Shown here: piece after piece, positions 38,280 through 61,344 of the stretch
How the letters are laid out: each line of letters begins with the position of its first letter
How positions within the stretch are numbered: the first letter of the stretch is position 1
Source: Acidimicrobiaceae bacterium
GTDB lineage: Bacteria; Actinomycetota; Acidimicrobiia; Acidimicrobiales; Aldehydirespiratoraceae
Assembly (NCBI GenBank): GCA_009843915.1
Contig: VYCM01000110.1
Coordinates: 17,298-81,297, forward strand
DNA length: 64,000 bases
Reading direction: 5' to 3'
Translations under genes and position numbers: made by a program
The notes under the pieces: model-generated
Databases searched by the model: none
What the model saw: the letters and a program-made list of their open reading frames with translations, nothing else
Told to the model about the DNA's origin: nothing

Positions 38280-38282
38280 CGG

Positions 38283-39293
38283 CTAGAACGGCTGGGGGTT
38301 GAAGCAGCGGAAGCCCACTCCGGCCTCCACCTCGTGGGGCGGGTGGTCGCTCCAGCACTGCTCCAGAGCGTGGGGGCATCGGGGGGCGAAGCGGCATCCC
38401 GGGGGCATCATCTGCATGGGCGGGACCAGCCCCGGAATCGGAACCAGCTCCCGGCGTTTGCGGCTCACGTGGGGGAGGGCCCGCAGCAGGCCCTGCGTGT
38501 AGGGATGGCGCGGGTTGGAGAACAGCTCGTCGACCGGACCCTCCTCCACGATCTCGCCCGCGTACATCACCGCCACCCGGTCGGCGATCGAAGCCACCAC
38601 AGCCAGGTCGTGAGTGATGAGCAGCATCGACATGTGGCGGTCCTGCTGCTCGGAGCGCAGCCGCTCGAGGATCTGGGCCTGCACGGTCACGTCGAGCGCG
38701 GTGGTGGGCTCGTCGGCGATGAGGATCTCGGGGTCCAGCACCAGGGCGGTGGCGATCATCACCCGCTGGCGCATCCCGCCCGACAGCTCGTGCGGGTAGG
38801 AGTCGAAGCGCTCGGTGGGGGCGGGCAGGCCGACGGCGCGCAGGATCTCGACGCTCATTTCGCGGGCCTCGGCCTTGGTGGCGTCCCGGTGCGTGCGGAT
38901 CACCTCGGTCATCACCTGACCCACTGTGAACACCGGATCGAGCGATGTCAGCGGATCCTGGAAGATCATCGAGATCCGCTCCGAGCGCACGTCGCGAACC
39001 CGGCGCTCGGGCAACTCGGTGAGGTCGGTTCCGTCGAAAACGACCTCACCGGACGTGATCCGCACGGGGGGAGTGGGCAGCAGCCGCATGATCGACAGCG
39101 CGGTGATCGTCTTGCCGCAGCCGCTCTCGCCCACCAGGCACAGCACCTCGTTGGGGTTGATGTCGAAGGACACGTCTCGGACCACGTCGAAGGATCCCTC
39201 CGGCGTGGCCACCGCGGTGTGGAGGTTGCGGACCGACAGGACCGGCGCCTTGGTCGAGCCGTTGGTGGCGGCCTGAACTGAGGACATGCTCAC
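38283..39293 (-). CDS. Oligopeptide/dipeptide ABC transporter ATP-binding protein (OppD/DppD type)
   Basis: Walker A GESGCGKT, signature LSGGMRQR, Walker [12 protein letters not shown], and C-terminal HPYTQGLL / CRFAPRC. Confidence 0.9.
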
Positions 39294-39300
39294 GGCGGGC

Positions 39301-40218
39301 TCATGCCTTGCGCAGCCTGGGGTTGGCCACGGTGTAGCCGACGTCGGCTGCCCAGTTGCTCAGCACGACGATGGCGATCAGCACCAGCGAGAAGAACTGG
39401 GCCACCGGGTAGTCGCGCCTCAGCACCGCGTTGACCAGCACCTGGCCCAGGCCGGGCCAGCCGAAGATCGTCTCCACCACCAGCGCGTAGCCGACGATCT
39501 GGCCGATCCGCAGCCCGGCCAGCGAGATGATCGGCACCATGGCGTTGCGCAGCACGTGCTTGCCGATGATGCTCGTCTCCGACAGGCCGCCCGCCCGCAG
39601 CGTTCTAACGAAGTCCTGGCCGAGGTTCTCCAGCATGGCCGAGCGGGTCATCCTCACGGTCAGGGCGATCCCCTCCATGGCCAGCACCACCGCGGGCAGG
39701 ATCAACTGCTTGAAGCTGCAGCACCCCGCCGAAGGCAGCCATCCCAGCGTGGACGCGAATAACCACACCGTCAGCAGGGCCAGCCAGAAGTTGGGCACGG
39801 CCATGCCGGCCACCGAGAACGTCATCACCGAGCCGTCTGCCCAACTGTTTCGTCTGACCGCGGCCAGGATGCCCAACGGGACCCCGATGGCGAAAACCAG
39901 CCCGAAGGCGGCCGCGCCCAGTATCAGGCTGTTCTTGCCGTGGTGGGTGAGCATGTCGAAGATGTCGGCGTTGTTGGTGAGCGACTTGCCGAGGTCGAAG
40001 GTGAGCAGGCGGCCCATGTAGCGGAAGTACTGCTCGTGGACCGGGTCGTTGAGGCCCAGCAGCTCCCGGAACTCCTCGCGCTCCTCGAAGGAGGCCGAGG
40101 CGGGAAGCCGGGCCGACACCGCGTCGCCGCCCGAGAGCCGGATGGCGTAGAAGACCGCGATCGACGACAGCAGCAGCACGATGAGCGTGTAAATGGAGCG
40201 GGCCGCGATGCGCTTCAT
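39301..40218 (-). CDS. Peptide ABC transporter permease (DppB/OppB-like)
   Basis: MKRIAARSIYTLIVLL N-terminus and multi-TM organisation typical of DppB. Confidence 0.9.
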   Translation of the reverse strand: MKRIAARSIYTLIVLLLSSIAVFYAIRLSGGDAVSARLPASASFEEREEFRELLGLNDPVHEQYFRYMGRLLTFDLGKSLTNNADIFDMLTHHGKNSLILGAAAFGLVFAIGVPLGILAAVRRNSWADGSVMTFSVAGMAVPNFWLALLTVWLFASTLGWLPSAGCCSFKQLILPAVVLAMEGIALTVRMTRSAMLENLGQDFVRTLRAGGLSETSIIGKHVLRNAMVPIISLAGLRIGQIVGYALVVETIFGWPGLGQVLVNAVLRRDYPVAQFFSLVLIAIVVLSNWAADVGYTVANPRLRKA

Positions 40219-40237
40219 GCCAGGGTGCCCCGGGTGC

Positions 40238-41197
40238 TCATTGCTCGTCCACCGACTTGGCCTCGTGGCGCAGGCGGGGGTCGAACACGTCCCGCAGCCC
40301 GTCGCCGATGAGGCTCACCGACAGCACCACCAGCACGATGGCGATGCCGGGGATGGTCGACTCCCAGTGGTTGAGCCGCAGGAAGTTGCGGCCGTCGGCC
40401 ACCATCTGCCCCAGGCTCGGGGTGGGAGGCTGGGCGCCCAGGCCGATGAACGACAGGGCGGCCTCGGCGATCACGGCCACCGCCACGTAGTAGGACGCCA
40501 GCACGAAGGCGGGGGCCAGGATGTTGGGGAAGATGTGGCGCCACATGATGCGCATGGACGAGTAGCCGCCGGCCCGGGCCGCCTCCACGAACTCCCGCTG
40601 CGACAGGGTCAGCACCTCGCCCCGCACCACGCGGGCGATGGCCGCGGTGTTGACCAGCCCCACGGCCAGGATCACCGGGAACAGGCCGCCGCCCATCCCA
40701 CCGACGAACAGCACGGCCAGCAGGATCAGCGGGAAGCCCCAGATGAAGTCGACAGCCCCTCCGATGGAGCGGTCGGTCCAGCCCCGCAGGTAGCCGGCCA
40801 GCATGCCTAGCACGATGCCGGCTATCAGCGCGAGCAGGGTCACCCCGGCGGCCACGGTCAGGCTCACCCTGATGCCCACGAAGACCCTTACCGCCATATC
40901 CCGTCCGAGGGCGTCGGTGCCGAAGATGTGGCCGTCGCTGAGCGGCTTGAGGTGGATGGCCGAGTAGTCCTGGGAGACGTAGTCGCCGCCAGTGATCCAC
41001 GGCCCCAAGATTCCCGCGGCCAGCACGACCACGCCGAGGGCCGACCCCAGCAGCAGCAGCCGGTTGTGGCGCATGCGGCGAAGGCTGCGCCGCATGCTGC
41101 CGATGTGCTGGGCCTCCTCCAGCTCCAGGAGCCGGTGCTCCCAGTCGAGACGGCGCGCCTCGACTACTGCCGTTGCGCCGTCCGTGGCGGCGGTCAC
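40238..41197 (-). CDS. Peptide ABC transporter permease (DppC/OppC-like)
   Basis: Multi-TM, FVEAARAGG EAA-loop. Start uncertain (GTG 41197 or the internal MRRSLRR). Confidence 0.85.
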   Translation of the reverse strand: MTAATDGATAVVEARRLDWEHRLLELEEAQHIGSMRRSLRRMRHNRLLLLGSALGVVVLAAGILGPWITGGDYVSQDYSAIHLKPLSDGHIFGTDALGRDMAVRVFVGIRVSLTVAAGVTLLALIAGIVLGMLAGYLRGWTDRSIGGAVDFIWGFPLILLAVLFVGGMGGGLFPVILAVGLVNTAAIARVVRGEVLTLSQREFVEAARAGGYSSMRIMWRHIFPNILAPAFVLASYYVAVAVIAEAALSFIGLGAQPPTPSLGQMVADGRNFLRLNHWESTIPGIAIVLVVLSVSLIGDGLRDVFDPRLRHEAKSVDEQ

Positions 41198-41240
41198 GGC
41201 GCCGCCGCTGTGCTCGTCAGGCTCGTGGCCCCTATGCCCC

Positions 41241-43046
41241 CTAGCCCTCGATCCACGTGTCGTTGTAGTACGGGTAGAGGTTCCACACGAACGGCTGCCA
41301 GCCGTGCACCTTGTTGTGGTGCACGAACGTGGCGTTCTGGTTCATGATCGGCAGGTAGGGCAGCTGCTCGGCCCAGGCCAGCTGGAACTCCGACGACGCG
41401 GCCTGCGCCTCGGCCTCGGTGCCCGACTGCTGCCACGCGGCGATGGCGTCGTCGATGCGGGGCTCGACCGCGTGCGAGAAGTTCGGCACCGGGATGGTGG
41501 CCGACCAGCCGAACAGGATGAGCACATCGAGGGGAATAGGCCACAGCCAGAAGAACAGCGACATCTCTACCGAGTCGCGTCCCGGCCGGCTCTGCTCGGC
41601 GAAGGCGAGGCCGCGGTCGACGACGTTGAGGTTGGCCCTCACGCCGACCTTGGCGAACTGGGCCGACACCGCGGCGGCCACGTTCTTCTGCACCGACTCG
41701 TCCTCGACCAGGTAGCGGAACTCGAAGCGGACGCCGTCGCGCACCCGCACGCCGTCGTCGCCCATCACCCAGCCGGCCTCGTCGAGCTTCGCGTTGGCCA
41801 GATCCACGTCGAACTGGTTGAACTGCTCCACCGCGGGGTCGTATTGGCGGTCGGTGGTGGGGAACGGCCCGTAGGTGGCCGCTCCGTTGCCGGCCAGGAT
41901 GGCGTTGACCATGCCCTCGCGGTCCAGCGAGTGCGACAGCCCCTGGCGGGTCAGCACGTCGCCGAACAGCTCGTCGTAGTCCCGGTTCATGGCCAGGTGG
42001 AAGCCCGACCACTCGGGATGGCGGATCACCGTCAGGTCGGAGTTGTTCTCCAGCCTGGAGATGTCGATGTGGGCCGGGTTGATGAGCGTGTCGATGTCGC
42101 CGTTCTCGAGCTGGGTGGCCCGCTGGCCTTCCTCGGTGATGACCGTCCAGCGGATGCCGTCGAGGTAGGCCGGGCCCTTATTCTCGAAGAACGGGGTGTT
42201 CGAGCCGGGGTAGTCGGCCCAGCGGCTCACCGACACGTGGCTGCCCGGCACCCACTCCTCGTGGGTGAACGGCCCGGTGCCGTCGGCGAACTCGGTCCCG
42301 TAGGTGGACTCGGGATTCAGCGTGCCGTCGGCATTGAGCGAGCTTTCCTTCCAGGTGTTGATGTTGAGGATGCGCCAGTAGCCGGTCTTGTGCGGCCCGA
42401 GCGCGCCCAACCAGGCGTTCTTCATCTTCATGACCACGGTGTTGCCGTCGGCCTCGTATGTGTCGACCGGAGCCGCCAGGCCCGCGATGAAGCTGTAGGC
42501 CTGAACCGAGCGGTAGAACTCGGCTACCGCCTCGGCGTCGACCGTCCCGCCTGAGTGGGAGATCTTGCCCTCGGGAATATCGAAGGTGTAGGTCAGCCCG
42601 TCGTCTGAGACGGAGAAGCCCGATGCGAACTGGGGCACATCGGCGCCCGACGGGTCGTTGGACAGGATGGCTTCGTAGATGGCGAAGAAGGCTGGGTCGT
42701 ACCAGTTGGTGGTGAGCGGGTCGTGCTTGGAGACGTCCCGGTTGTAGCCCTCCCGCAGGGTGCCGCCCTGGGTGGGACCGGTGGCGGCCGGCTCCTCCGG
42801 GGCAGCGGTGGTGGCCGGAGCGGCGTCGTCGGTGTCGGCCGGCTCGGCCGGGGCCGCAGTGGTGGTAGGTGCGGCCTCCTCGTCGTCGCCGCAGGCGGCC
42901 AGGATGCTGGCCGCGGCCGCAACTCCTACGCCTGTCATACCCAGGCGCTTCATGAACGCCCGGCGGTCGAGCTGGTTGGCCTGGTACTGATCGGCGAGCT
43001 CGGCGACCTCCGGCCCGTACTCGTCTCTAATCCACGAAGTCCCCAT
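41241..43046 (-). CDS. Peptide/nickel-type (family 5) ABC substrate-binding lipoprotein, Tat-type signal
   Basis: Start MGTSWIRD at 43046 with AAGGGGG upstream. DRRAFMKRLG twin-Arg motif, ILAAC lipobox, Pro/Thr/Ala/Asp linker, then a family-5 SBP-length body. Confidence 0.85.
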   Translation of the reverse strand: MGTSWIRDEYGPEVAELADQYQANQLDRRAFMKRLGMTGVGVAAAASILAACGDDEEAAPTTTAAPAEPADTDDAAPATTAAPEEPAATGPTQGGTLREGYNRDVSKHDPLTTNWYDPAFFAIYEAILSNDPSGADVPQFASGFSVSDDGLTYTFDIPEGKISHSGGTVDAEAVAEFYRSVQAYSFIAGLAAPVDTYEADGNTVVMKMKNAWLGALGPHKTGYWRILNINTWKESSLNADGTLNPESTYGTEFADGTGPFTHEEWVPGSHVSVSRWADYPGSNTPFFENKGPAYLDGIRWTVITEEGQRATQLENGDIDTLINPAHIDISRLENNSDLTVIRHPEWSGFHLAMNRDYDELFGDVLTRQGLSHSLDREGMVNAILAGNGAATYGPFPTTDRQYDPAVEQFNQFDVDLANAKLDEAGWVMGDDGVRVRDGVRFEFRYLVEDESVQKNVAAAVSAQFAKVGVRANLNVVDRGLAFAEQSRPGRDSVEMSLFFWLWPIPLDVLILFGWSATIPVPNFSHAVEPRIDDAIAAWQQSGTEAEAQAASSEFQLAWAEQLPYLPIMNQNATFVHHNKVHGWQPFVWNLYPYYNDTWIEG

Positions 43047-43129
43047 GGGACGCCCCCTTTTCCAGAGTGATGAGTGTGCGGCCGACACGGTGTGGCTACG
43101 GCCGGAGCCGAAACCGTATACCAAATCGT

Positions 43130-43172: not shown

Positions 43173-43982
43173 TCAGAGGTCGTTGACGGCCTGAGCCGAC
43201 GGGTATGAACTCCTGAAGTCGCTCGCCGCGCCCGCGGACCAGAGTGCGCCTAGAGGCACGGTCAATTCGACGACTTCGGGCTTGGTGCACGGCTGGCCCT
43301 GGGCCACGCGCAGCGAAGTAGATCCCGCTCGGTGCCGCAGGACGTAGGAGTACACGGTCCGGTAGCCCTGGTGGTTGCAGATGCCGGTGTCGCCGTCGTC
43401 GTGGGAGCGCTGCAGGGCGAAGATGTCGTCGATCCCGCCAGCTTCGTCCAGCCTGCGCTGGGCCGAGGCCAGGCGCCTCTGGGTGGTGACGGTGTCGTCG
43501 TCATCGGGGTGAGGCTTGAGGGCGATGTGGTGGTTGGAGCGAGCCGCCGGACCGGCGAGCGCGGTTACCTCGGTCCGGTCGCCCCGCACCTCCACCGCCG
43601 CAGCCGCGACTGCGTCGATCATGATCAGGTTGGCCCACAGGTAGGGCTTCGACTCGACTGCCTCCTGCACGGCCGAGACGGCCGAGTCGACGTCACGTCC
43701 CTCGCGCAGGGCGATCTCGGTCAGTTCGTCGTAGTTGGCGTGCCCGTCCAGGGTGCGCACGTTGGAGTCGCAGCACAGCAGTCCGTGCTCGTTGGCTCCG
43801 ATCGAGAATCCCGAGAACTCGTCGAGGTCCGGATCGGTCCCGGCCCAGGTGGTCACGCCCTGCACGCCGAAGACGTCGGGTTCGGTCACGAGCCGGTCAT
43901 CGAAGTGGGTCCGCCCGAAGTCCTTATTCTTGAACAGCAGGTAATCGCCCTCACCGATCCTCAGCACTCCGGTCGTGCACAT
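43173..43982 (-). CDS. Ntn-hydrolase superfamily protein (choloylglycine hydrolase / peptidase C45-C59-like, N-terminal Cys)
   Basis: Begins MCT......G..LLFKNKD, paralleling the MCT...GRNxD N-terminus of linear-amide C-N hydrolases. At 269 aa it is shorter than characterised members. Confidence 0.55.
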   Translation of the reverse strand: MCTTGVLRIGEGDYLLFKNKDFGRTHFDDRLVTEPDVFGVQGVTTWAGTDPDLDEFSGFSIGANEHGLLCCDSNVRTLDGHANYDELTEIALREGRDVDSAVSAVQEAVESKPYLWANLIMIDAVAAAAVEVRGDRTEVTALAGPAARSNHHIALKPHPDDDDTVTTQRRLASAQRRLDEAGGIDDIFALQRSHDDGDTGICNHQGYRTVYSYVLRHRAGSTSLRVAQGQPCTKPEVVELTVPLGALWSAGAASDFRSSYPSAQAVNDL

Positions 43983-45058: not shown

Positions 45059-46792
45059 CTACGGCCGGCGAACGGGCAGGGTGATGCGCGTCGGGTGATC
45101 GGCGTCGTGGAGCACGGTCTGGGTGGCCGGGGCGGCTACCAGGGCGCTGTCCTGAAGGGGCGTTCCGCCGGTGTTGAGGTTGCGGTCCCATTGGGGGAAG
45201 TCCGAGCTGGAGATGTCCAGCCGCAGCCGCGATCCGGCCGGGACGTGGGCGCCGACGGGGCCGAGGTCGATGCGCAGCTCGTAGACCTCGCCGGGAACGA
45301 GAGGCTCGGGCTCGCTGAGCGAGTGGCGGTAGCGGGCCCGCAGGATGCCCTCCTGGAGGTTGACGCTGCGGCCGTCGGGATCGACGATGCACAGCCGGGC
45401 GGTGAAGTCGGTGTCGGCGGCGGTGCTGGCTGCGTGCAACGTCACCGACACATCGCCGAGCAGCTCGATGTCGTCCGCTAGGGGCTCGGACGTGTACACG
45501 AGGATCATGCGCGACACCTCGGCCTGGTGCTGGTCGGCCGGACCCATCGGTGTGATGGTGTCGAAGCAGCAGGAATGGCCGCCCATGCTGGGAATGGGCA
45601 CGCCGGGGTCGTAGACGAAGATGTCGGGCGGCTCGGCGGCGGCTGGGACCCGGTCGAGGGTGCCGTCCCCGAACTTGGAGTTGGCCCGCCCCCTCGAGTG
45701 GATGAACCAGTCCTCGGCGGCGGTGTCGGAGGGGGGCCACCAGTCGAGGTCTCGCCATCCGCCGTCGAGGGTGAACACCGTCACCGGCGAGTCGAGCACT
45801 CCGGTGTCGATGCCCTTGAGCGTGTGGTCGAACCAGCGCAGCTGCCAGTCGTCGATCTCGTTGGTGCTCGGGCCGTCACCGCCGCAGCGGCTCACCGGTG
45901 TCCACGGCATGTGGGTCCACGGGCCCACCAGCAGCTTCTGGGTCCGCCGGGCCGCCTCCGTTCCGGCTGAGGTCCGCAGCCCGGTGAAGTTCTTCACCGT
46001 TCCGCTCAGGAACACGTCCCACCAGCCCCCGAAGTGCAGGGCCGGGACCTCGATGCGGCTGTAGTCGGAGTCGATGCTCCAGCGCTTCCAATAGTCGTCG
46101 TAGGTGCAGTGCTCCACCCAGTCGTAGAAGTAGGGGGCGTAGCCGCCCTGCAGCGGCGGGAACTCCGACAGCGGCAGCGACCAGAACCACCCTTCGGCTG
46201 CGCCGAGCGACGCGCCGAGGGCGTCGACCGCGGCCCGGTCCCCGGCCCGCACCGCCGACCCGAGGGCCAGCAGGTTGGCCCAGTAGCACACGAAAGCCGC
46301 GGCCAGCGCGCCGCCGTTGTAGGTCCAGCCCTCGTAGTACTGCGAGGCGGTGAAGCCCGGCGCGATGCAGCGCAGCGATGGGGGTCGGGTCACTGCGGCC
46401 AGCAGCTGGGTGGCGCCCACATAGGAGAACCCGAACATGCCCACGTCGCCGTTCGAGCCCGGGAGGGTCGCCGCCCACTCGACGGTGTCGTAGCCGTCGT
46501 CCATCTCGTGCGCGAACGGGTAGAAGTCTCCCTCGGAGGTGTAGCGGCCCCTGGTGTCCTGGATGACGACCATGTAGCCAGCGGACGCGTACCACGCCGA
46601 GTGGGCGTTGCCGAACGTGGAAACGTTGATCCGCTTGTCATAGGGGCTGCGGGCCAGCAGCACTGGATTGCCGTCCGCCGGCTGATCCGCGGGTCGGTAC
46701 ACGTCGGCCCGCAGCACTGTGCCGTCTCGCATGGTGGCGGGCACGTCCCGCTCGACGGTGACCGGCAATCCGGGAAGGTTCTCGATTGTCAT
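45059..46792 (-). CDS. CocE/NonD-family (peptidase S15 fold) hydrolase
   Basis: 577 aa. DTRGRY.SEG and the nucleophile elbow GFSYVG. Paralogue of 17310-18845. Confidence 0.85.
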   Translation of the reverse strand: MTIENLPGLPVTVERDVPATMRDGTVLRADVYRPADQPADGNPVLLARSPYDKRINVSTFGNAHSAWYASAGYMVVIQDTRGRYTSEGDFYPFAHEMDDGYDTVEWAATLPGSNGDVGMFGFSYVGATQLLAAVTRPPSLRCIAPGFTASQYYEGWTYNGGALAAAFVCYWANLLALGSAVRAGDRAAVDALGASLGAAEGWFWSLPLSEFPPLQGGYAPYFYDWVEHCTYDDYWKRWSIDSDYSRIEVPALHFGGWWDVFLSGTVKNFTGLRTSAGTEAARRTQKLLVGPWTHMPWTPVSRCGGDGPSTNEIDDWQLRWFDHTLKGIDTGVLDSPVTVFTLDGGWRDLDWWPPSDTAAEDWFIHSRGRANSKFGDGTLDRVPAAAEPPDIFVYDPGVPIPSMGGHSCCFDTITPMGPADQHQAEVSRMILVYTSEPLADDIELLGDVSVTLHAASTAADTDFTARLCIVDPDGRSVNLQEGILRARYRHSLSEPEPLVPGEVYELRIDLGPVGAHVPAGSRLRLDISSSDFPQWDRNLNTGGTPLQDSALVAAPATQTVLHDADHPTRITLPVRRP

Positions 46793-46864: not shown

Positions 46865-47428
46865 ATGAGCGAATTCAAGCAGGAGCGGTACTACGAGGAG
46901 GACTCCGGCGCCGGCGGGATTCCCGCGGCGCAGGTCGGGGACTTCCTGGCCAGCGCCGACAGCACCTGGCTGCTCAAGCTGGCCCACCTCAAGGCCGACG
47001 GCTGGCCCATGGTGGTACCGCTCTGGTACCAGTGGGACGGCGAGGCGTTTCTGGTGGTGGGGCGCAAGCGCTCGGAGTGGGTCGATGACCTGCGACGCGA
47101 TCCCCGCTGCGCGGTGTGCATAGAGGAGCTGGCCCACCCCCGGATCCGCAAGGTGCTGGCCCAGTGCACGGCCGAGATCGTCGAGGGCCCGGCCGTTGGC
47201 GAGGGCTCGCAGTGGGTGCCCGTGGCTGAGGAGATGGCCGTCCGCTACACCGGTCCGGACGGGCCGGAGCAGCTCAAGATGTCCTGGGGCTGGGAGCGAT
47301 ACCTGGTGCGGCTCGTGCCGCGTGACGGCCGCCTGGTGACCTGGCAGGGGGCGGACTGGGCGCTGCGTTATTTCGATCCCGGCCAGCGCCCCGACCTCGA
47401 AGTCAAGGCCGCGGCTCGGTCCCAGTGA
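46865..47428 (+). CDS. Pyridoxamine 5'-phosphate oxidase-like (FMN/F420-binding split-barrel) family protein
   Basis: Start MSEFKQ at 46865. LAHLKADGWPMVVPLWYQWDGEAFLVVG is collinear with 22421-22957. Confidence 0.65.
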   Translation: MSEFKQERYYEEDSGAGGIPAAQVGDFLASADSTWLLKLAHLKADGWPMVVPLWYQWDGEAFLVVGRKRSEWVDDLRRDPRCAVCIEELAHPRIRKVLAQCTAEIVEGPAVGEGSQWVPVAEEMAVRYTGPDGPEQLKMSWGWERYLVRLVPRDGRLVTWQGADWALRYFDPGQRPDLEVKAAARSQ

Positions 47429-48582
47429 CGAGGCCTCCCGCCGACCGGGCCGATTCTCTGCGCCGGTCGGAGATCAGGGTCCTCTTCGACGCCGCCGCTC
47501 GTCTCGGCGACGACGTGATCAGGTTGGAGGTGGGCGAGCCCAGCTTCACCACCCCCGTCCATGTCATCGAGGCGGCGGCCAGGGCTGCCCGCGACGGTCA
47601 CACCGGCTACGGCCCCAACGGGGGCCTGTTGAGCTTGCGTGAACTGCTGGCCGACAAGCTGCGCCGGGTGAACGGCATCGAAGCCTCCGTTGACGAGATC
47701 GTGGTGACACCCGGGGCCATGAACGCGCTGTACTCCGTGTATCTGGCTCTGCTTTCCGCCGGCGACGAGGTGCTGCTGCCTACGCCGGGCTTCCCCAACA
47801 TGGACGAGACCATCCGGTTGTTGGGGGGCGCGCCGGTGTTCTACCCCCTGTCGGCCGATGCCGACTTCCTTCCCGACGTGGGAGCTCTCGAGGCGCTGGT
47901 GACGGAACGGACGAGGATCCTGTTCGTCAACACACCGGCCAACCCGACCGGCGCGGTGTATCCGGCCCCGCTGATGGAAGACCTCGTGGAGTTCGCCGCA
48001 CGCCACGACATCTGGCTTCTGTGCGACGAGGTGTACGACGAGATGGTGCTGTCGCCCGGCTGCGTCCACACGGCGGCCGCGCCCCTGGATGCCGACGGGC
48101 GGGTGATCACCGTTTGCAGCTTCTCCAAGGTGTACGCCATGACCGGATGGCGCGTGGGATATGCGGCCGCGCCGCGGCCGGTGGCCGATCTGCTGCGCAA
48201 ACTGCAGGAGCCTCTGGTGTCGTGCCCCAGCACCATCTCCCAGAAGGCGGCCGAGGCTGCCCTCACGGGACCGCGCGCACCCTATGACGAGATGCTGGCC
48301 GCCTACCGGTGCCGCCGGAGCGCGGCCTTGGATGCCGCGGCCGCGGCCGGCGTGCGGGCGGTGCCCTCCGACGGCACCCTCTACATGCTGCTGGACGTCT
48401 CCGCGGCGGGCGTCGACGACCTCGAATTCGCTCTGGCGCTGCTGGAATCCGAATCGGTGAGCGTGGCGCCCGGCTCGGTGTTCGGTCCCGCCGGCCGCGG
48501 CTGGGCCCGCATCTCCCTGGCCGCGGAGGAGACGGCCATAACCGAGGGTGTCCGTCGGCTGGCCAAGGCGCTGCACCGGTAG
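47425..48582 (+). CDS. Class I/II pyridoxal-phosphate-dependent aminotransferase
   Basis: GTG start in GTGA overlap. NTPANPTG and SFSKVYAMTGWRVGY. Confidence 0.9.
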   Translation: MTRPPADRADSLRRSEIRVLFDAAARLGDDVIRLEVGEPSFTTPVHVIEAAARAARDGHTGYGPNGGLLSLRELLADKLRRVNGIEASVDEIVVTPGAMNALYSVYLALLSAGDEVLLPTPGFPNMDETIRLLGGAPVFYPLSADADFLPDVGALEALVTERTRILFVNTPANPTGAVYPAPLMEDLVEFAARHDIWLLCDEVYDEMVLSPGCVHTAAAPLDADGRVITVCSFSKVYAMTGWRVGYAAAPRPVADLLRKLQEPLVSCPSTISQKAAEAALTGPRAPYDEMLAAYRCRRSAALDAAAAAGVRAVPSDGTLYMLLDVSAAGVDDLEFALALLESESVSVAPGSVFGPAGRGWARISLAAEETAITEGVRRLAKALHR

Positions 48583-48617
48583 AGAGAATCACGGACAACA
48601 GGAAGGAACACGGCGCA

Positions 48618-49892
48618 ATGAACTCGACTGAAGCGAACGGGGTGGCCGAGCGGGTCCGCGCCTATCTCGACGGGCGGGACGGCGAGGTGCTGGAGCTGGC
48701 CCGAGACCTGATCCGGACCCCGTCGCCCAACCCTCCCGGCGACGAGCGAGCCGTGGCCGACCTGGTCACCGAGAGGCTTCGGGAACTCGGCATCGACGAC
48801 ATAACCCGGGTGGGAGCCGAGGAGACCCGGCCCAACGTGCTGGCCCGGGTGAAGGGCGCGGCACCGGGGCCGACGCTGATCCTGTCGGGCCATCTCGACA
48901 CCAAGCCGGCCGGTGACATGGACGCCTGGGAGACCGATCCCTGGGACCCGGTGCTGCGCGACGGCCACCTGATCGGGCTGGGCTCCGGCGACATGAAGGC
49001 GGCGGTGGCCGGGATGATGTACGCCGCGGCCGCCTTGCACCACGCTCAGGAGGCCGGCGGAGCCGGCGGGGGATTCGCGGGCGAGGTGGTACTGGTGTTC
49101 ACCGCAGACGAGGAGGCCGGCGCCCAGTTCGGATCCAAGTGGCTGGCCGAGAACGGCCACCTAAGCGCCGACGCCGCGATCATCGGCGAGCCCAGCGGCA
49201 TCACCTCCGAATGGCAGTCGGTCCACCTGGTGTCGAGGGGTGCGGCCCTGTTCAAGGTGGCCATCACCGGAACGCAGATGCACTCGTCCATCTCGGACCG
49301 CCTTCCGTGCGTCAACGCCACCGTCAAGATGGCCCGCCTGATCGACCGTATGGACCGCGAGCTCAAGTCCTATCTCACCTACGACGACCATCCCCTGTGC
49401 CCCGTCGGTCCCACCGTCAACGTCGGGGTGATGGCCGAGGCGGGAGTGTTCTACGGCGTGTATCCCGGCAACGCCGAGTTCGCCTGCGATGTGCGGACTC
49501 TGCCGGGAATGACCGAGGAGTCGCTGAAGGCGGACGTCGGACGCTTCCTGGCTGACGCCATGGCCGACGATCCTGATCTGCGAGCGGAGCTGAACTGGTT
49601 CTTGACGGTTCCCCCGGTCGAGATCGATGCCGACCACCCGGTGGTGGGCGCTCTCGTCGAGGCGGGTCGCGAGGTCTTGGGCATCTCACCCGAGCTCGAC
49701 GCCTTCCCCGGAGCCACCGACGCGCCCTACTTCCAGCTGACCGCCGGCATCCCCACCGTGGCCGCCTTCGGCCCGGGGATGCTGCCGAGGGCCCACAGCC
49801 CCAACGAGTACATGGACGCCGACGGCGCGGCCCTGTCGGCCAGCATCTACGCCCTGGCCGCGTTGCGCTACCTCGGCGAGGCCGAGAGCTAG
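48618..49892 (+). CDS. M20-family metallopeptidase / N-acyl-amino-acid deacylase (ArgE/DapE-like)
   Basis: ATG 48618 with AGGAAGGA upstream. SGHLDTKP, GSGDMKAA and TADEEAG metal-ligand motifs. Confidence 0.85.
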   Translation: MNSTEANGVAERVRAYLDGRDGEVLELARDLIRTPSPNPPGDERAVADLVTERLRELGIDDITRVGAEETRPNVLARVKGAAPGPTLILSGHLDTKPAGDMDAWETDPWDPVLRDGHLIGLGSGDMKAAVAGMMYAAAALHHAQEAGGAGGGFAGEVVLVFTADEEAGAQFGSKWLAENGHLSADAAIIGEPSGITSEWQSVHLVSRGAALFKVAITGTQMHSSISDRLPCVNATVKMARLIDRMDRELKSYLTYDDHPLCPVGPTVNVGVMAEAGVFYGVYPGNAEFACDVRTLPGMTEESLKADVGRFLADAMADDPDLRAELNWFLTVPPVEIDADHPVVGALVEAGREVLGISPELDAFPGATDAPYFQLTAGIPTVAAFGPGMLPRAHSPNEYMDADGAALSASIYALAALRYLGEAES

Positions 49893-49902: not shown

Positions 49903-50574
49903 ATGACCATTCCTAAGTCGGAGCTCTGCGCCCGCTACCGGCGCATCTGCGTGTCGGTGGTGTGCGACGCGCTGTACGAGTTGGGCCTGCCCGAGCGGGT
50001 GCTGTCCAGCGGGCTGAAGCCTCTGCTGCCCGACGTGCGCATGGCCGGCATCGCCTACACGCTGGAGGGCCGGGCCATCCGCCCCGGCGTGGGCTGGGAC
50101 CGGGGCCTGGACCGCATCAAGTCGTATCTTGAGATGTTCAAGGAGCTGACGCCGGACTCGGTGCTGGTGTCGTGCAACCCCGACAGCGAGGTGGGCCACT
50201 TCGGGGAGCTGACCGGCAACTCGGCCCAGCAGTACGGCTGTACGGGCGTGGTGCTCGAAGGCAACTTGCGCGACCTTGACGGCCTTCTCGACATCGGCCT
50301 GCAGGTCTTCTACCGGGACCTGTCGCCGCTGAACGCCATCGGGCGCTGGGAGATGGTGGCCTCCCAGGTGCCGGTGACCATCGGCGACGTGACCGTGGAG
50401 CCCGGCGATCTGGTCGTCGGCGACCGCGACGGCGTCCTGGTGGTGGCCGGGTCCGAGGCGGAGCGCGTGCTGCTGCAGTCCGAATCGATTGTGGGGTCCG
50501 AGGAGCTGGTGCGGGCCGACATGCGGGCCGGTGCCACCCCGTGGGAGGGTCTTGAGCGCCATGGCCACATCTGA
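49903..50574 (+). CDS. RraA-family protein (HMG/CHA aldolase / oxaloacetate decarboxylase-like)
   Basis: GELTGNSAQQYGCTGVVLEGNLRD and the DRDGVLVV motifs of the RraA/DlpA fold. Confidence 0.8.
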   Translation: MTIPKSELCARYRRICVSVVCDALYELGLPERVLSSGLKPLLPDVRMAGIAYTLEGRAIRPGVGWDRGLDRIKSYLEMFKELTPDSVLVSCNPDSEVGHFGELTGNSAQQYGCTGVVLEGNLRDLDGLLDIGLQVFYRDLSPLNAIGRWEMVASQVPVTIGDVTVEPGDLVVGDRDGVLVVAGSEAERVLLQSESIVGSEELVRADMRAGATPWEGLERHGHI

Positions 50575-50836
50575 GGAAGGGGCCGCGCCCGCCGGGCCCG
50601 CCGGCGCCGAGTTGACGATTCCCCAGATGGGGGTGGTGGAGCAGGTGCTGGTCGTGGAATGGCTGGTCGAGGACGGCTCTCTGGTGACCGCGGGCGAGTC
50701 CGTGGTGGTCATCGACACCGACAAGGCCGAGACCGAGTTGGAGGCCCCGGCTTCGGGCCGCCTCCATGTCCTTGTGCCGGCCGGCGACGAAGAGGTGGCG
50801 GTGGGAACAGTCCTGGCGACCGTTTCGACAGGATGA
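50561..50836 (+). CDS. Free-standing lipoyl (biotinyl/lipoyl attachment) domain protein
   Basis: 91 aa. IPQMGVVEQVLVVEWLVEDGSLVTAGESVVVIDTDKAETELEAP has the canonical xDK(A) lipoyl-lysine hairpin. It overlaps the RraA-like gene by 14 nt and the next SDR by ATGA. Confidence 0.75.
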   Translation: MATSEEGAAPAGPAGAELTIPQMGVVEQVLVVEWLVEDGSLVTAGESVVVIDTDKAETELEAPASGRLHVLVPAGDEEVAVGTVLATVSTG

Positions 50837-51594
50837 GCGGGACTTTCTCGTTGGAGGGCCGGGTGGCGGTGGTCACCGGCGCGGCCGGTGGTCTGGGCGC
50901 GCCCATCGTTGAAGGGCTGGCCGACGCCGGTGCCTTCGTTGTGTGTGCCGATGCGGCCGGCGAGCCCAACCGGGCGCTGGTCGAGCACCTGGGACCGGAC
51001 CGGTCCGAGGCCATCACCGTCGATGTGCGCGACGAGGTGTCGGTGCAGGACCTCGCGGCCCGGGCCGCGGCTGTGACCGGGAGCATCGACGCGCTGGTGA
51101 CCTGCGCCGGGATCGGCGGTCGCGGACCGGCCGCGGACTACGACGACGGGACCTGGGCCAACGTGATCGACGTGAACCTCACCGGAGCGTTCCGCACTTG
51201 CCGCGCCGTGGGCCGCCGCATGATCGCTCAGCCGCACGGCGGCTCCATCGTCAACATCGCCTCGGTGGTCGGCGAGGTCGGCTTCGCGGGCAGTGTCGGC
51301 TACCAGGCCTCGAAGGGCGGGGTGATCCAGATGACCCGCACGCTGGCGGTGGAGTGGGCCCCGTACAACGTCAGGGTCAACGCCATCTCGCCGGGCCACG
51401 TGGCCACCCCGCTGGTGCGCCGCCAGTGGGAGCTCGAGCCGGAGCTGAAGGACTACTTCGAGAGCCGCACGCCGCTGGGCCGGCTGGCTGAGCCGGTCGA
51501 CATGGTGGGTGCCGCGGTGTTCCTGGCCGGGCCTGCGTCGGCCATGGTCACCGGCCAGATCCTTGCCGTCGATGGCGGCTACACCGCGCAGTGA
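50833..51594 (+). CDS. SDR-family oxidoreductase
   Basis: VTGAAGGLG and YQASK (YxxxK). ATGA and GTGA overlaps on either side. Confidence 0.9.
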   Translation: MSGTFSLEGRVAVVTGAAGGLGAPIVEGLADAGAFVVCADAAGEPNRALVEHLGPDRSEAITVDVRDEVSVQDLAARAAAVTGSIDALVTCAGIGGRGPAADYDDGTWANVIDVNLTGAFRTCRAVGRRMIAQPHGGSIVNIASVVGEVGFAGSVGYQASKGGVIQMTRTLAVEWAPYNVRVNAISPGHVATPLVRRQWELEPELKDYFESRTPLGRLAEPVDMVGAAVFLAGPASAMVTGQILAVDGGYTAQ

Positions 51595-53618
51595 CGGGCA
51601 CGATGCCTGCTCTGGAGCGGTCCGAGGCCTTGGCCCTGCACCGGACCATGGTGCTGATCAGGGTGTTCGAGAGCCGCGTCGAGGAGCTGTTCAAGGCGGG
51701 CAAGCTGCCGGGGTTCGTCCACACCTACCTGGGCGAGGAGGCGATCGCCACCGGGGTCTGCGCCCAGCTGAGCCCCGACGACTACATCACCTCCACCCAC
51801 CGGGGTCACGGGCACGCGTTGGCCAAGGGCATGTCGCCCGCCGCGCTGATGGCCGAGCTCTACGGGCGGGTTGAGGGCGCCTGCCGGGGCCGGGGAGGCT
51901 CGATGCACGTGGCCGACTTCTCGCTGGGGATGCTGGGCGCCAACGGCATCGTCGGCGGTGGGTTCGGGATAGCCGCGGGTGCCGCGCTGGCGGCCCGTCA
52001 CCGCGGAACCGATCACGTGGCGGTGTGCTTCTTCGGCGACGGCGGGATCAACAAGGGAACGTTCCACGAGGCCCTCAACTTCGCTTCGGTGCACCGGCTG
52101 GGCGTGGTGTACGTGTGCGAGAACAACCAGTACGCCCAGTTCACCGCCCGCAGCCGGACCACATCGGTCGAGGACCTGGCCGTGCGGGCCACCGCCTATG
52201 GCATGGCAGGGGCCACTGTCGACGGCAACGACGTGGCCGCGGTGTCCGCCGCGGCGGCCGAGGCGGTTCAGCGAGCCCGGGACGGGGAGGGCCCGACCCT
52301 GCTGAACATGGTCACCTACCGTCTCGGGGGCCACTACGTGGGCGACGCCGAGGTGTACCGGGACGCTTCCGAGGTGGAGGAGTATCGCGGCCGCGATCCG
52401 ATCCAGCGCTGGGAGGAGACGCTGGCCGAGCGGGGCTGGCTCGACTCCGAGAGCCGGGCGACGGTGTGGGACGAAGCGGCCGCAGCGGTGGGCGACGCCG
52501 AGGAGCGGGCCGAGGCGGGATCCCTCCCAGATCCCGAGAGCGCGCTGGACGACGTGTTCACTCCCGTGCCGGCCGCGACCGAGGGCTTCCGGAGGGGAGC
52601 CGTCCAGGCTCCCCCGGCCGGCGATCCCGACGGTGAGACGCCCGAGACCCGACGAATGACCTTCGGTCAGGCCACCGTCGATGCCATGGGCCGGGCCATG
52701 CGGGCCGACGACAGCGTGGTCGTGCTGGGAGAGGACATCTCCTGGGGCGGCAACTTCGGGCAGTTCCGCGGCCTGGTCGACGAGTTCGCATCCCGCCGGG
52801 TCATCGACATGCCCATCTCGGAGGCGATCATCGTGGCCGTTGCCGTGGGGGCGGCCACGGCGGGGTTGCGTCCGGTGGCGTCGATGAGCTTCGTGGAGTT
52901 CACGCTGGGGGCCATGGACGAGATCGTCAACCAGGCCTCGAAGTTCCGGTACATGTTCGGCGGCCAGGTGTCGGTCCCGCTGGTGCTGCGGGCCTCCGAC
53001 GGTGTGCTGCGCTCGTCTGCGTCCCAGCACTCCTCCAGCCTGGAGGGACTGTTCACCCACCTGCCCGGCCTGAAGGTGGTGGCGCCGTCGAACCCGGCCG
53101 ACGCCAAGGGCCTGCTGCGAACGGCCATCGACGATCCCGATCCGGTCATCTACCTGGAGCACAAGAAGATCACCGCCCAGCGGGGCCCGGTTCCCACCGG
53201 CGATTACCGGGTGCCGTTGGGATCGGCTGCGGTGGTCCGCGCCGGCGCTGACGTGACCGTGGTGGCCTACTCGGCGATGGCCCTGAACGCGCTGGCGGCG
53301 GCGGAGCGGCTGGCCGCCGACGGCATAGACGTCGAGGTGATCGACCTGCGGTCGCTCGTGCCGCTCGACTTCGACACCGTCGTGCAGTCGGTGGCCCGCA
53401 CTCGCCGGGCGGTGGTGGCCCACGAGGCGTGGTGCTTCGGCGGCTTCGGCGCCGAGTTGGCCGCCCAACTGCACTCCGAGCTATTCGGGGAGCTGGAGGC
53501 GCCGGTGGCGCGGGTCGGCGCGGCCCCGGCGCCGATCCCGTTCAGCCCGCCGCTGGAAGCGGCCGTGGTCCCGGGCGCCGACGCCGTGGAGGCGGCGGTG
53601 CGGACCGTGCTGGGTTAG
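51591..53618 (+). CDS. Fused thiamine-diphosphate-dependent 2-oxoacid (pyruvate/acetoin/branched-chain type) dehydrogenase E1 alpha-beta
   Basis: N-terminal half has the E1-alpha TPP motif GDGGINKG...CENNQYA. The C-terminal half (from about MTFGQATVDAM) is E1-beta-like (VIDMPISEA, pyrimidine-binding and transketolase C-terminal domains). Start is GTG 51591 or ATG 51603. Confidence 0.85.
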   Translation: MTGTMPALERSEALALHRTMVLIRVFESRVEELFKAGKLPGFVHTYLGEEAIATGVCAQLSPDDYITSTHRGHGHALAKGMSPAALMAELYGRVEGACRGRGGSMHVADFSLGMLGANGIVGGGFGIAAGAALAARHRGTDHVAVCFFGDGGINKGTFHEALNFASVHRLGVVYVCENNQYAQFTARSRTTSVEDLAVRATAYGMAGATVDGNDVAAVSAAAAEAVQRARDGEGPTLLNMVTYRLGGHYVGDAEVYRDASEVEEYRGRDPIQRWEETLAERGWLDSESRATVWDEAAAAVGDAEERAEAGSLPDPESALDDVFTPVPAATEGFRRGAVQAPPAGDPDGETPETRRMTFGQATVDAMGRAMRADDSVVVLGEDISWGGNFGQFRGLVDEFASRRVIDMPISEAIIVAVAVGAATAGLRPVASMSFVEFTLGAMDEIVNQASKFRYMFGGQVSVPLVLRASDGVLRSSASQHSSSLEGLFTHLPGLKVVAPSNPADAKGLLRTAIDDPDPVIYLEHKKITAQRGPVPTGDYRVPLGSAAVVRAGADVTVVAYSAMALNALAAAERLAADGIDVEVIDLRSLVPLDFDTVVQSVARTRRAVVAHEAWCFGGFGAELAAQLHSELFGELEAPVARVGAAPAPIPFSPPLEAAVVPGADAVEAAVRTVLG

Positions 53619-53623
53619 CGGCC

Positions 53624-54421
53624 TCAGATCCCCTCTTCACCCCCGTCGGTGGGGGAGTGGAGCCACTCGGTGCTCAGATTGCCGAAGGCGCGGTGGAAGG
53701 CGAGCATGGTGTCGTCGCAGCGCGATCCGGGGCCGCAGTGCAGCACGCCCGCAGGGCGGAAGAAGTAGGTGCCTGCCCCGGCCGTGATCATCTCGTCGGT
53801 ATCGGTGGACTGCTCCCGCAGGACAGTCTCGCCGTCGATCACGAAACACTCTTCATGGTGAGGATGGTGGTGCCAACCGCTATCGCCATGGTCCCATTCA
53901 CGAGCGCCCGCCAGCCAGACGTCGCCGACCGGACCCTGGCCCAGAGACTTGACGTGTCGACCGGGCATCTCTGGAACCGGCACCCAGTCCTGCTCGGAAG
54001 CCCGGCCAGGCACCAGCTCGGCAGGCGGACCCATGAAGGTCGGGTCGTATCGCACCGGAGCGGCCGTCATCAGCAGGGCAGCGCCGTCGGCTGTGATCCG
54101 CAGCCGGGGGACGGTCCGCCCCTTCGGGAGGTGGACGTAGTCCCCGGCCTCCAGGGCGTGCGGTCCGACCTCGAGCGCGCCCTGGATCACGAAGAGCTCC
54201 ACCTCGGCGGTGAACGCGCCTCGTGCCTCCGTTCCCCAGCCCGCCCGCAGGCGCACAAGCCGGGTGCTCGAGCCCCTCAGGTCGGTCGACAGGATCCGGG
54301 CCCCGAGGGCGCCGTCGATCCCTGGGATGGTCATCGGTCTGGTCGGCAGCGAAGCGTCCTGGATCCCGGCCAGGTGTGTGGCCGTCCTGTCGACCAGAGC
54401 CGGGTCCACGCCGCTCGCCAC
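53624..54421 (-). CDS. Cupin-domain (bicupin-like) protein
   Basis: WHHHPHHEECFVIDGE matches the cupin G(x)5HxH(x)3-4E metal motif. A second beta-barrel-like half lies upstream. GTG start. Confidence 0.65.
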   Translation of the reverse strand: MASGVDPALVDRTATHLAGIQDASLPTRPMTIPGIDGALGARILSTDLRGSSTRLVRLRAGWGTEARGAFTAEVELFVIQGALEVGPHALEAGDYVHLPKGRTVPRLRITADGAALLMTAAPVRYDPTFMGPPAELVPGRASEQDWVPVPEMPGRHVKSLGQGPVGDVWLAGAREWDHGDSGWHHHPHHEECFVIDGETVLREQSTDTDEMITAGAGTYFFRPAGVLHCGPGSRCDDTMLAFHRAFGNLSTEWLHSPTDGGEEGI

Positions 54422-54439
54422 GGCTGTCAGCCCTTGCTC

Positions 54440-54952: not shown

Positions 54953-55029
54953 GCTCAGCCGTCCTCCTGTGGTTCCTGGCGGGTTCGCTAGTTCCTACTA
55001 GCTCCCGCCGGCTCGCGGTGGGATGTCCG

Positions 55030-56400: not shown

Positions 56401-56422
56401 GGCGAGGTGTGGGGCGCGGGCG

Positions 56423-57442: not shown

Positions 57443-57468
57443 GGCGTCTCCTAATGCGGCTCTTCCGC

Positions 57469-61232: not shown

Positions 61233-61344
61233 GGCCGCGTACGTCGCCCCACATTCGCACAATACACAAGTTCGACCCCCGATCTAGAAAAAAAGTCCCA
61301 CCAGGCCAGCCACCGAGCGCCGGCCGGCCATGAACGGCAATGGG

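Follow-up and report, generated by a model that had tools for sequence, protein, structure and literature searches.

The 2-oxoacid and acetoin dehydrogenase systems are the textbook case of substrate channelling, which takes place on the scaffold of the E2 (acyltransferase) component. An operon of the archaeon Haloferax volcanii, reportedly described by Wanner and Soppa in 2002 and by van Ooyen and Soppa in 2007, is said to encode E1 alpha and E1 beta, followed by a gene for a lipoyl domain that is attached to nothing else, with neither an E2 nor an E3 (dihydrolipoamide dehydrogenase), and the role of this E1/lipoyl set was reportedly left unresolved about twenty years ago. Here, we describe a locus in a 64,000-nucleotide stretch of DNA from an Acidimicrobiaceae bacterium (contig VYCM01000110.1; this whole stretch is referred to below as the window) in which a stand-alone lipoyl-domain protein of 91 amino acids, a short-chain dehydrogenase/reductase (SDR) and a fused, thiamine diphosphate (ThDP)-dependent E1 alpha-beta protein are encoded by the last three genes of a seven-gene operon. 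With a probability that we put at roughly 60%, the locus encodes an E2-less derivative of an acetoin/pyruvate-dehydrogenase type system within a catabolic operon, in which the fused E1 would acylate the free lipoyl carrier and the carrier would be unloaded and re-oxidized in trans.

The lipoyl protein is encoded on the plus strand at 50561..50836. Its only Pfam match is to PF00364 (E 2.4e-16, residues 17-87; 59.8 bits against a cutoff of 22.1), and the lipoyl-lysine is K55 in a DTDKAE hairpin, in agreement with a preliminary description of this DNA that had called the open reading frame (ORF) a lipoyl domain and nothing else. The motif is the DKA of lipoyl domains and not the MKM of biotinyl domains. 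The best NCBIfam matches are AcoC and E2 lipoyl domains, with the AcoC lipoyl domain first, and the GcvH family PF01597 is not matched (PF00364 is the only match at E<=0.001). Among 5.8 billion proteins searched there are 216 homologues, and the best 120 of these are all 69-107 amino acids long and match PF00364 only; DTDKAE is kept in 119 of these 120. In an alignment of the family, a variable, low-complexity N-terminal tail of 0-40 residues (about 16 in the window) precedes a conserved domain of about 72 residues, and the chain ends 4-6 residues past the lipoyl domain in 28 of 28 aligned members, leaving no C-terminal linker, peripheral subunit-binding domain or catalytic core. Pairwise ratios of nonsynonymous to synonymous substitution (dN/dS) between the window gene and three diverged relatives are 0.15-0.25 at dS values of up to ~0.96, which is indistinguishable from the ratios for the SDR (0.15-0.20) and the fused E1 (0.16-0.19). 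The size of the family, its uniform short length, the effectively invariant lysine and a dN/dS like that of the neighboring genes indicate that the 91-residue ORF is a real gene under purifying selection and not a decayed E2. The preliminary description had reached the same view from the tight gene overlaps. Its identification as a functional stand-alone lipoyl protein is likewise supported, with K55 as the predicted site of lipoylation. NCBI names some members of the family "lipoyl domain-containing protein" and others "dihydrolipoamide acyltransferase"; the latter name is misleading for lipoyl-only proteins because they have no transferase domain.

The lipoyl protein is at most 40% identical to any sampled E2 lipoyl domain. 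The loop ahead of its conserved Trp (window 50606-50660, lipoyl residues ~16-34) reads PQMGVVEQVLVVEW, and that of its counterpart in locus L084 of our survey (8013-8249) reads PQLGLVESVVLLEW. E2 and AcoC lipoyl domains have P-K-W-G-L-S-M-x-E-G-x-V-x-x-W at this place, where the window loop lacks the E-G and is one residue shorter. The beta1-beta2 loop of lipoyl domains adjoins the lipoyl-lysine hairpin and contributes to recognition by E1. The clade-specific form of this loop may therefore reflect co-adaptation with the fused E1.

The fused E1 is encoded on the plus strand at 51591..53618, with an in-frame ATG at 51603, and is 675 or 671 amino acids long depending on the start. A single stop-free frame contains the E1_dh domain (residues 19-315; PF00676, E 1.1e-81), the Transket_pyr domain (356-527; PF02779, E 7e-38) and the Transketolase_C domain (544-666; PF02780, E 7.3e-36), and a Pro/Ala-rich linker at about residues 325-355 connects the alpha and beta halves. 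Thus, the fusion given in the preliminary description holds, and its length of 675 residues is one of the two values. Public gene calls start an identical E1 at the ATG at 51603, four codons downstream (671 amino acids, P0121), and for this reason an exact look-up of the 675-residue sequence returned no match. The protein scores below the NCBIfam cutoffs of the pyruvate dehydrogenase models (TIGR03182, 342.2 against 393.85; PRK09212, 316.2 against 321; PRK11892, 321.4 against 454) and is therefore not a named pyruvate dehydrogenase equivalog. Its domain content and ThDP motif fit a heterotetramer-type (alpha2beta2) E1 in all but the two separate polypeptides, and the fused protein is probably a homodimer equivalent to alpha2beta2.

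The residues expected of an acylating E1 are in place. The ThDP motif GDG-X(24-27)-NN is found as G149-D150-G151 and N178-N179, and GDG149-151, NN178-179, H248, E411, F437 and H480 are invariant in 15 fused E1 homologues. In an alignment to 1w85_B, the E1p beta subunit of G. stearothermophilus, E411 corresponds to E59, F437 to F85 and H480 to H128. In the G. stearothermophilus enzyme, E59beta activates ThDP and the reductive acetylation of lipoate is proposed to use H128beta as its general acid/base, and the His equivalent to H128beta is reported to be conserved in all known E1s (PMC2663715). The invariance of E411, F437 and H480 argues that the fused E1 still performs reductive acylation, as opposed to a pure decarboxylase or carboligase role.

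Given the lipoyl protein and the E1, we searched the window for the components that would ordinarily accompany them. Hidden Markov models (HMMs) were built from 15 canonical E2 cores, 38 AcoC-type hydrolase domains, nine E3s and 66 lipoyl domains, and were run against all stop-to-stop ORFs of at least 40 residues in the six frames of the window. This search found exactly one lipoyl domain; neither an E2 core nor an E3 appeared, even with the cutoff relaxed to E<=10. Pfam annotation of ~57 ORFs in the window likewise contains no E2, E3, LplA, LipB, LipA, acyl carrier protein (ACP), non-ribosomal peptide synthetase (NRPS) or polyketide synthase (PKS), and the claim of the preliminary description that the 64 kb hold neither E2 core nor E3 is upheld by both methods. 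The search did return a weakly AcoC-like alpha/beta-hydrolase at 37578-38282 (E 2.5e-9), 12 kb from the lipoyl and E1 genes. A split-off AcoC hydrolase of this kind was considered as the missing "E2" and rejected; the L084 locus also has an AcoC-like hydrolase (E 8.6e-15), but the two show no BLAST match to each other and are not orthologues.

The genes of the operon were called from third-position GC content, direct reading of the sequence and Pfam/NCBIfam annotation, in DNA with a GC content of ~69% across the window. All seven lie on the plus strand. Gene 1 (46865..47428, 187 amino acids) encodes a PNPOx-like (PPOX-class) oxidoreductase with weak NCBIfam PPOX-class matches, possibly dependent on F420 or flavin mononucleotide; its orthologues in loci L081-L084 match PF01243 at the same position, with 76% identity to the L084 orthologue. 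Gene 2 (47425..48582, 385 amino acids) encodes a class I/II pyridoxal phosphate-dependent aminotransferase (PF00155, E 1.6e-68) with no NCBIfam equivalog at cutoff. Gene 3 (48582..49892, ~436 amino acids) encodes an M20 metallohydrolase of the ArgE/DapE deacylase type (PF01546 and M20_dimer), which scores 213 bits against the TIGR01910 ArgE/DapE model, slightly below its cutoff of 217.6. Gene 4 (49903..50574, 223 amino acids) encodes an RraA-like protein of the class II pyruvate aldolase/oxaloacetate decarboxylase family (PF03737, E 3.2e-26; dN/dS 0.25-0.33); among named PDB structures, it is closest to the 4-carboxy-4-hydroxy-2-oxoadipate aldolase 3noj. Gene 5 is the lipoyl gene. Gene 6 (50833..51594, 253 amino acids) encodes a classical SDR of the polyol/sugar-acid dehydrogenase type (adh_short_C2, E 2e-62); its best NCBIfam match, to the GolD/DthD family, is below cutoff, and its nearest PDB relatives are galactitol dehydrogenase 2wdz, gluconate 5-dehydrogenase, polyol dehydrogenase and sorbitol dehydrogenase. 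Gene 7 is the fused E1 gene.

The three ORFs of the preliminary description are all found within the coordinates that it gave, and every junction in this operon is an overlap or a gap of at most 10 nucleotides. The lipoyl start at 50561 overlaps the stop codon of the RraA-like gene (50572-50574) by 14 nucleotides, and the lipoyl stop and SDR start form an exact ATGA overlap, as the preliminary description had stated. The GTGA overlap that it gave for the SDR stop and the E1 start at 51591 exists as sequence, but GTG is not certain to be the true start because gene callers use the ATG at 51603. A consensus scan for promoters and terminators gave no informative signal in the high-GC DNA of the window. 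Coding signal and conservation are strong, and the lipoyl/SDR/E1 set therefore does not consist of chance ORFs in high-GC DNA.

Conservation extends beyond these three genes, which the preliminary description had treated as the unit. The seven-gene order is identical in L001/L002 and in L081-L083, where the flanks are syntenic too, and the same seven genes are found in this order in L084/L085, where E1 identity falls to 64-65% and the flanks differ (an MlrC-like peptidase, a FAH-family hydrolase and a further ABC system of the SBP_bac_5 type). It is thus the whole seven-gene operon that is conserved, in two genomic contexts. The lipoyl gene accompanies the fused E1 in every member of the window clade, and this co-occurrence in two contexts, together with the covalent E1-lipoyl fusion described below, bears out the earlier suggestion that the lipoyl ORF is tied to the fused E1. 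Contigs from a sponge metatranscriptome match the entire operon at 90-99% identity. Among them are pieces that cross from the RraA-like gene into the lipoyl gene (50335-50681) and from the lipoyl gene into the SDR gene (50708-50981), as would be consistent with co-transcription of the operon in related strains.

We next asked how the family of this E1 is partnered elsewhere. The survey combined 80 loci from species-representative genomes (E1 identity 42-49%) with 80 metagenomic loci (41-52% relatives) taken from among the matches listed for the generic patterns STHRGHGH and GGSMHVAD, and came to 166 loci with the window included. The alpha and beta genes are separate in 76 of the 80 species-representative loci, and in nearly all of these 76 an ORF that starts with a lipoyl domain comes after the E1 genes. 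Classified by Pfam, 38 of 53 such partners join the lipoyl domain to an alpha/beta-hydrolase (AcoC type), and the other 15 to an E3-binding domain and a 2-oxoacid_dh core. The lipoyl domain is therefore the constant partner of this E1 and the domain behind it is interchangeable. The premise of the preliminary description, that a canonical E2 core is obligatory, proves too strong in light of the 38 AcoC-type partners.

Across the 166 loci, split E1s have an alpha/beta-hydrolase type partner in 59, a 2-oxoacid_dh core type partner in 32, no lipoyl domain nearby in 24 and a lipoyl-only partner in five (L014 from Neisseria dentiae, L019 from Brooklawnia, L108, L143 and L167). Fused E1s have a 2-oxoacid_dh core type partner in 17 loci, no lipoyl domain nearby in 10, a lipoyl-only partner in nine (the window clade and L118) and, in a single locus (L155, 799 amino acids), a lipoyl domain fused on, as judged by Pfam. 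In nine further loci, of either E1 state, the lipoyl ORF is cut by a contig end or unclassified. E1 fusion is thus not unique to the window clade, with 39 of the 166 loci fused. The window clade is monophyletic in a rough neighbor-joining tree of the E1s, with L086-L088 as its sister, and the other lipoyl-only cases are scattered over this tree, which indicates that lipoyl-only partners arose, by all appearances, several times independently. A profile search of 1.84 billion representative proteins returned 11 single-domain proteins of 69-86 amino acids among its best 150 matches, as well as an 816-residue protein (P0468) with a C-terminal lipoyl domain at 734-807.

The independent cases differ among themselves in layout. 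L155 encodes an E1alpha-E1beta-lipoyl triple fusion (8950-11349, plus strand) with its Pfam lipoyl match at residues 735-794; an SDR lies divergently upstream, a 2-hydroxyacid dehydrogenase lies downstream and there is no adjacent E2 core. P0468 may have the same architecture. In L014 (12039-12455) and in L019 (3797-4114, a Brooklawnia metagenome-assembled genome (MAG)), the acoC position encodes only a lipoyl domain of ~105 residues with a short tail, in clusters that are otherwise classical acoX-acoA-acoB. In L014, ~300 bp of non-coding DNA and then an SDR resembling butanediol dehydrogenase come after this ORF. The ORF at the acoC position may be either a recent truncation or a functional lipoyl-only partner.

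The chemistry that we propose begins with compounds supplied by the upstream enzymes. The aminotransferase would yield a 2-oxoacid, the polyol-type SDR would yield a ketol, and the RraA-like aldolase would link a 4-hydroxy-2-oxoacid reversibly to pyruvate and an aldehyde. The fused E1 would then use ThDP to cleave a 2-oxoacid or alpha-hydroxyketone and hand the acyl group, by reductive acylation, to the lipoylated K55 of the free 91-residue protein. Since it has no subunit-binding domain and no catalytic core, this protein would serve as a diffusible swinging arm, as GcvH does. The acyl-dihydrolipoyl protein would be unloaded in trans, to coenzyme A (CoA) or to water, and its dihydrolipoyl form would be re-oxidized in trans, most simply by the housekeeping dihydrolipoamide dehydrogenase. 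In this scheme, we infer the lipoylation of K55, the transfer from E1 to the lipoyl group, what the substrate is, which enzyme unloads the carrier and what re-oxidizes it.

Gene content gives some guide to the substrate. The solved relatives of the SDR oxidize a secondary alcohol beside another hydroxyl group to give alpha-hydroxyketones, the class of compound on which acetoin-type E1s act. Among the independent lipoyl-only loci, L014, L108 and L155 likewise have an adjacent SDR, and a gene of a pyruvate-aldolase family stands with the E1 in the window clade (RraA-like), in L086 and L087 (HpcH/HpaI) and in L118 (DHDPS family). The aminotransferase and M20 deacylase of the operon, together with an N-terminal-nucleophile (Ntn) enzyme, a CocE/NonD hydrolase and a Dpp-type importer that lie beside it (described below), point to conversion of an imported N-acylated or peptide-like amino compound into a (hydroxy-)2-oxoacid. 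We infer that the E1 substrate is this 2-oxoacid directly or a ketol made by the SDR. For the operon as a whole, the substrate may be an amino or sugar acid, peptide-like or hydroxylated, that derives from the host or from seawater; acetoin itself is unlikely. The predicted setting of the operon is catabolic.

Several observations weigh against the proposal of an E2-less system with its own carrier. No lipoyl domain was found within 9 kb of the fused E1 in the sister clade L086-L088, whose E1s are 59-61% identical to that of the window; it therefore seems that this E1 lineage can function with a partner whose gene lies at another site, or with no partner at all, and it may not strictly need a dedicated lipoyl protein. 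The AcoC-like hydrolases near the operon in the window and in L084, as candidates for acyl off-loading, are not orthologues of each other. The RNA matches are assembled contigs of related strains, and DNA carry-over into them is possible. The AlphaFold model of the lipoyl protein, built from a 28-sequence alignment, has a predicted local distance difference test (pLDDT) score of 41.5 and is unusable for fold comparison. Finally, a search of the searchable literature library on this architecture (a PF00364-only protein with an E1) found no paper.

A rather unlikely alternative is that the lipoyl protein is a detached arm and that the fused E1, through it or directly, feeds the E2 core of the housekeeping pyruvate or 2-oxoglutarate dehydrogenase (PDH or OGDH), so that the complex is an ordinary one whose genes lie apart. 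This overlaps with the in-trans unloading that we propose and differs only in making a housekeeping E2 the unloader. It would account for the absence of a locally encoded E2 core or E3 and for the sister clade, which retains H480 with no lipoyl gene nearby; it is also general knowledge that E3 is shared between complexes and GcvH and that E2 cores accept free dihydrolipoamide in assays. However, the lipoyl protein lacks the peripheral subunit-binding domain or linker with which it might dock to such a core, and its distance from the sampled E2 lipoyl domains and its clade-specific beta1-beta2 loop suggest co-adaptation with its own E1.

It is doubtful that the fused E1 is mainly a stand-alone ThDP lyase or carboligase that works with the aldolase and the SDR, with the lipoyl protein as an accessory, for example a redox or regulatory one, and not an acyl carrier. 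The fused E1s of the sister clade, which have no lipoyl gene, adjoin HpcH/HpaI aldolases, enolase-superfamily dehydratases and an SDR, and the recurrence of pyruvate-aldolase-family genes beside the E1 in the window clade, L086/L087 and L118 would fit such a role. E1-like enzymes that act without an E2 are reported for acyl-branched sugars (PMC9306805). Yet the lipoyl gene is under the same selection as the E1 and translationally coupled, its lysine is invariant, H480, the residue tied to lipoate acylation, is invariant as well, and L155 fuses a lipoyl domain covalently to the E1.

We consider it very improbable that the 91-residue ORF plays no part alongside the E1 today, whether as a biotin carrier or as what is left of a decaying AcoC/E2 gene. 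The closest E1 relatives do have full-length partners, PF00364 does include biotinyl domains, and the Neisseria dentiae ORF at the acoC place could be a recent truncation. But the low dN/dS persists at dS values approaching 1, the best 120 of the 216 homologues are all equally short, the lipoyl gene lies upstream of the E1 with the SDR between them and not at the acoC position, and the DKA motif and the AcoC/E2 lipoyl matches speak against biotin. Equally remote is the secondary-metabolite pathway to which the preliminary description had drawn an analogy, in which, as in the QncN/QncL/QncM or Nap systems, the module would deliver a C2 or acyl unit to a carrier protein: the resemblance is a general one, of an E1 and lipoyl unit outside central metabolism, but there are no ACP/PP-binding, NRPS, PKS or condensation genes in the 64 kb or in the flanks of L081-L085, and the neighbors are importers, peptidases, amidases and sugar-acid catabolic genes.

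Within the proposed E2-less system, one route for unloading the carrier deserves mention. A 269-residue protein encoded on the minus strand at 43173..43982 co-travels with the operon as an accessory gene: an orthologue with 61% identity adjoins the operon in the differently flanked L084. It has no Pfam match and a weak NCBIfam C45 match, and it resembles Ntn amidohydrolases/acyltransferases, with a Cys2 that is invariant in 26 homologues. Its AF2 model is a confident one (pLDDT 82.5, predicted template modelling score (pTM) 0.88) and has an Ntn-hydrolase fold; in Foldseek it comes closest to 2x1d, an acyl-CoA:isopenicillin N acyltransferase, and next to a C69 dipeptidase and bile-salt hydrolases. 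As a speculative proposal to which we give little weight, the acyl-dihydrolipoyl protein loaded by the fused E1 might replace CoA for one step and be the direct substrate of a co-travelling non-E2 enzyme; the 269-residue protein would be the best candidate because its nearest structural relative takes acyl groups from a thioester. Were this so, it would define a new protein-bound thioester route, from E1 to lipoyl carrier to Ntn acyltransferase, independent of 2-oxoacid dehydrogenase complexes. We did not adopt this protein as the missing acyltransferase, and the abundance of peptidases around it would be no less consistent with an ordinary amidase.

The remaining neighbors of the operon are arranged as follows. 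A CocE/NonD (S15) family hydrolase (45059..46792, minus strand; PF02129 and PF08530), which scores 426 bits against TIGR00976, above its cutoff, is divergent from the 5' end of the operon, and its position is syntenic in L081-L083. Beyond it lie the gene for the 269-residue protein and then, on the minus strand at 38283..43124, a Dpp/Opp-type ABC importer identified by Pfam and consisting of an SBP_bac_5 binding protein, two permeases and an ATPase. The same importer flanks the operon in L081-L083, and L084, too, has an SBP_bac_5 ABC system close to its operon. A cupin gene is convergent with the 3' end of the operon. It belongs to a minus-strand cluster at 53624-63078 that contains DUF4437/cupin, phosphoribosyltransferase, amidohydrolase and luciferase-like monooxygenase genes, a likely second amidohydrolase at ~57469-58557, a xanthine-dehydrogenase-type molybdoenzyme with a 2Fe-2S domain and a sulfite-oxidase-type Mo-binding protein. 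This cluster, which looks like one for the catabolism of N-heterocycles (purine- or pyrimidine-like), is syntenic in L081-L083 and does not stand beside the operon in L084.

The window also holds a partial, scrambled second copy of the operon gene set at 17310-25255, with neither an E1 nor a lipoyl gene. It comprises an S15/CocE-NonD hydrolase (17310-18845), a metallo-beta-lactamase (19991-20740), an SDR (20753-21598), a PNPOx-like protein (22421-22957), an oligopeptide ABC ATPase (22863-24089) and an aminotransferase (24104-25255), and these paralogues are 38-45% identical to the L084 operon proteins. An EthD-domain protein (11280-11678, plus strand) and a further SDR (2335-3123, minus strand), both distant from the window operon, are 73% and 77% identical, respectively, to genes directly upstream of the L084 operon, and may belong to the pathway of the operon although they are dispersed in the window.

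Elsewhere in the window are four enolase-superfamily (MR_MLE) genes (13-534, 5334-6503, 18848-19966 and 30600-31796), and near them are GFO/IDH/MocA oxidoreductases, Amidohydro_2 (lactonase-like) proteins, PhyH dioxygenases, a LacI regulator, three sugar-type ABC systems and a rhamnose-mutarotase-like gene (7474-7782). The window genes outside the operon region serve mostly the catabolism of sugar acids and peptides and ABC transport, and by its predicted gene content the window forms a dense island of sugar-acid catabolism. In L086/L087, the lipoyl-less fused E1s likewise have enolase-superfamily genes at their flanks. A stop-free frame of ~1500 residues (25252-29778, minus strand) has a GH16 glycoside hydrolase domain in its N-terminal part (28656-29876), and its other ~1130 residues have no Pfam match at E<=1e-5; it may encode a large secreted glycan-binding or glycan-degrading protein. 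A 536-residue ORF with good coding statistics (15818-17428, minus strand) has no Pfam match at E<=1e-5 and adjoins two ABC permease genes; judged by this position, it may encode a divergent solute-binding protein.

The operon is widespread in sponge-symbiont Acidimicrobiia. The E1s of the nearest public relatives are 96% and 93% identical to that of the window and come from MAGs labelled Acidimicrobiaceae or Acidimicrobiia; the label 'Candidatus Spongiisocius' is also seen on homologues of a gene that neighbors the operon, and sponge metagenome runs contain nearly all of the 64-kb stretch. The locus marks an uncharacterized seven-gene catabolic operon of these symbionts. A conserved E1 accompanied by a free lipoyl domain only would mean that the E2 scaffold is dispensable, and that this trait has arisen repeatedly. 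Such a minimal pair may be useful for studies of E1-lipoyl domain recognition and of the unloading of acyl-dihydrolipoyl proteins where no E2 core is present, and it may provide a basis for engineering small ThDP/lipoyl acyl-transfer modules.

Compared with the described systems, the window locus is distinct from each. In the tetrahydroisoquinoline antibiotic pathways, the QncN/QncL/QncM system uses an E1-type ThDP enzyme to load an acyl or hydroxyacyl unit onto a lipoyl group in the transfer of a ketose C2-unit, and it includes an E2 that carries a catalytic domain, as well as an ACP and an NRPS, none of which is present in the 64 kb of the window. The Haloferax operon, compared here by its description only, is archaeal and reportedly has separate E1 subunits and no SDR, aldolase, aminotransferase or M20 genes. 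GcvH and the GcvH-like LbpA of sulfur oxidizers (PMC6067878) work on the principle proposed for the 91-residue protein, as small, free lipoylated shuttles that are re-oxidized by a dihydrolipoamide dehydrogenase, but GcvH belongs to PF01597 and has a pyridoxal phosphate-dependent P protein as partner where the partner here is a ThDP-dependent E1. The window lipoyl domain differs from that of a canonical E2 in not being linked to a subunit-binding domain or an acyltransferase core.

The closest E1 relatives, at 42-49% identity over both halves, are those of the AcoA/AcoB/AcoC(/AcoL) systems of Pseudomonas, Cupriavidus and Bacillus, in which an SDR is often beside the E1 genes (L024, L046, L051) and the E3 is often not in the operon. 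In contrast to these systems, the alpha and beta chains of the window E1 are fused, its lipoyl domain is a separate protein encoded upstream of the E1 with the SDR between them, and that domain lacks the attached alpha/beta-hydrolase or 2-oxoacid_dh of AcoC, which is encoded after acoB; the window operon also adds the aminotransferase, the M20 deacylase, the RraA-like aldolase and the PNPOx-like gene. L014, L019, L108, L118, L143, L167 and L155 share with the window an E1 of the same family and a lipoyl domain without a catalytic domain. They lie on separate E1 branches, mostly with split E1s and with the lipoyl gene downstream at the acoC position, and the seven-gene operon is found in none of them. 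E2-less E1/lipoyl pairs are thus a minor but recurrent arrangement, and no other example found is as elaborate or as well conserved as the window clade.

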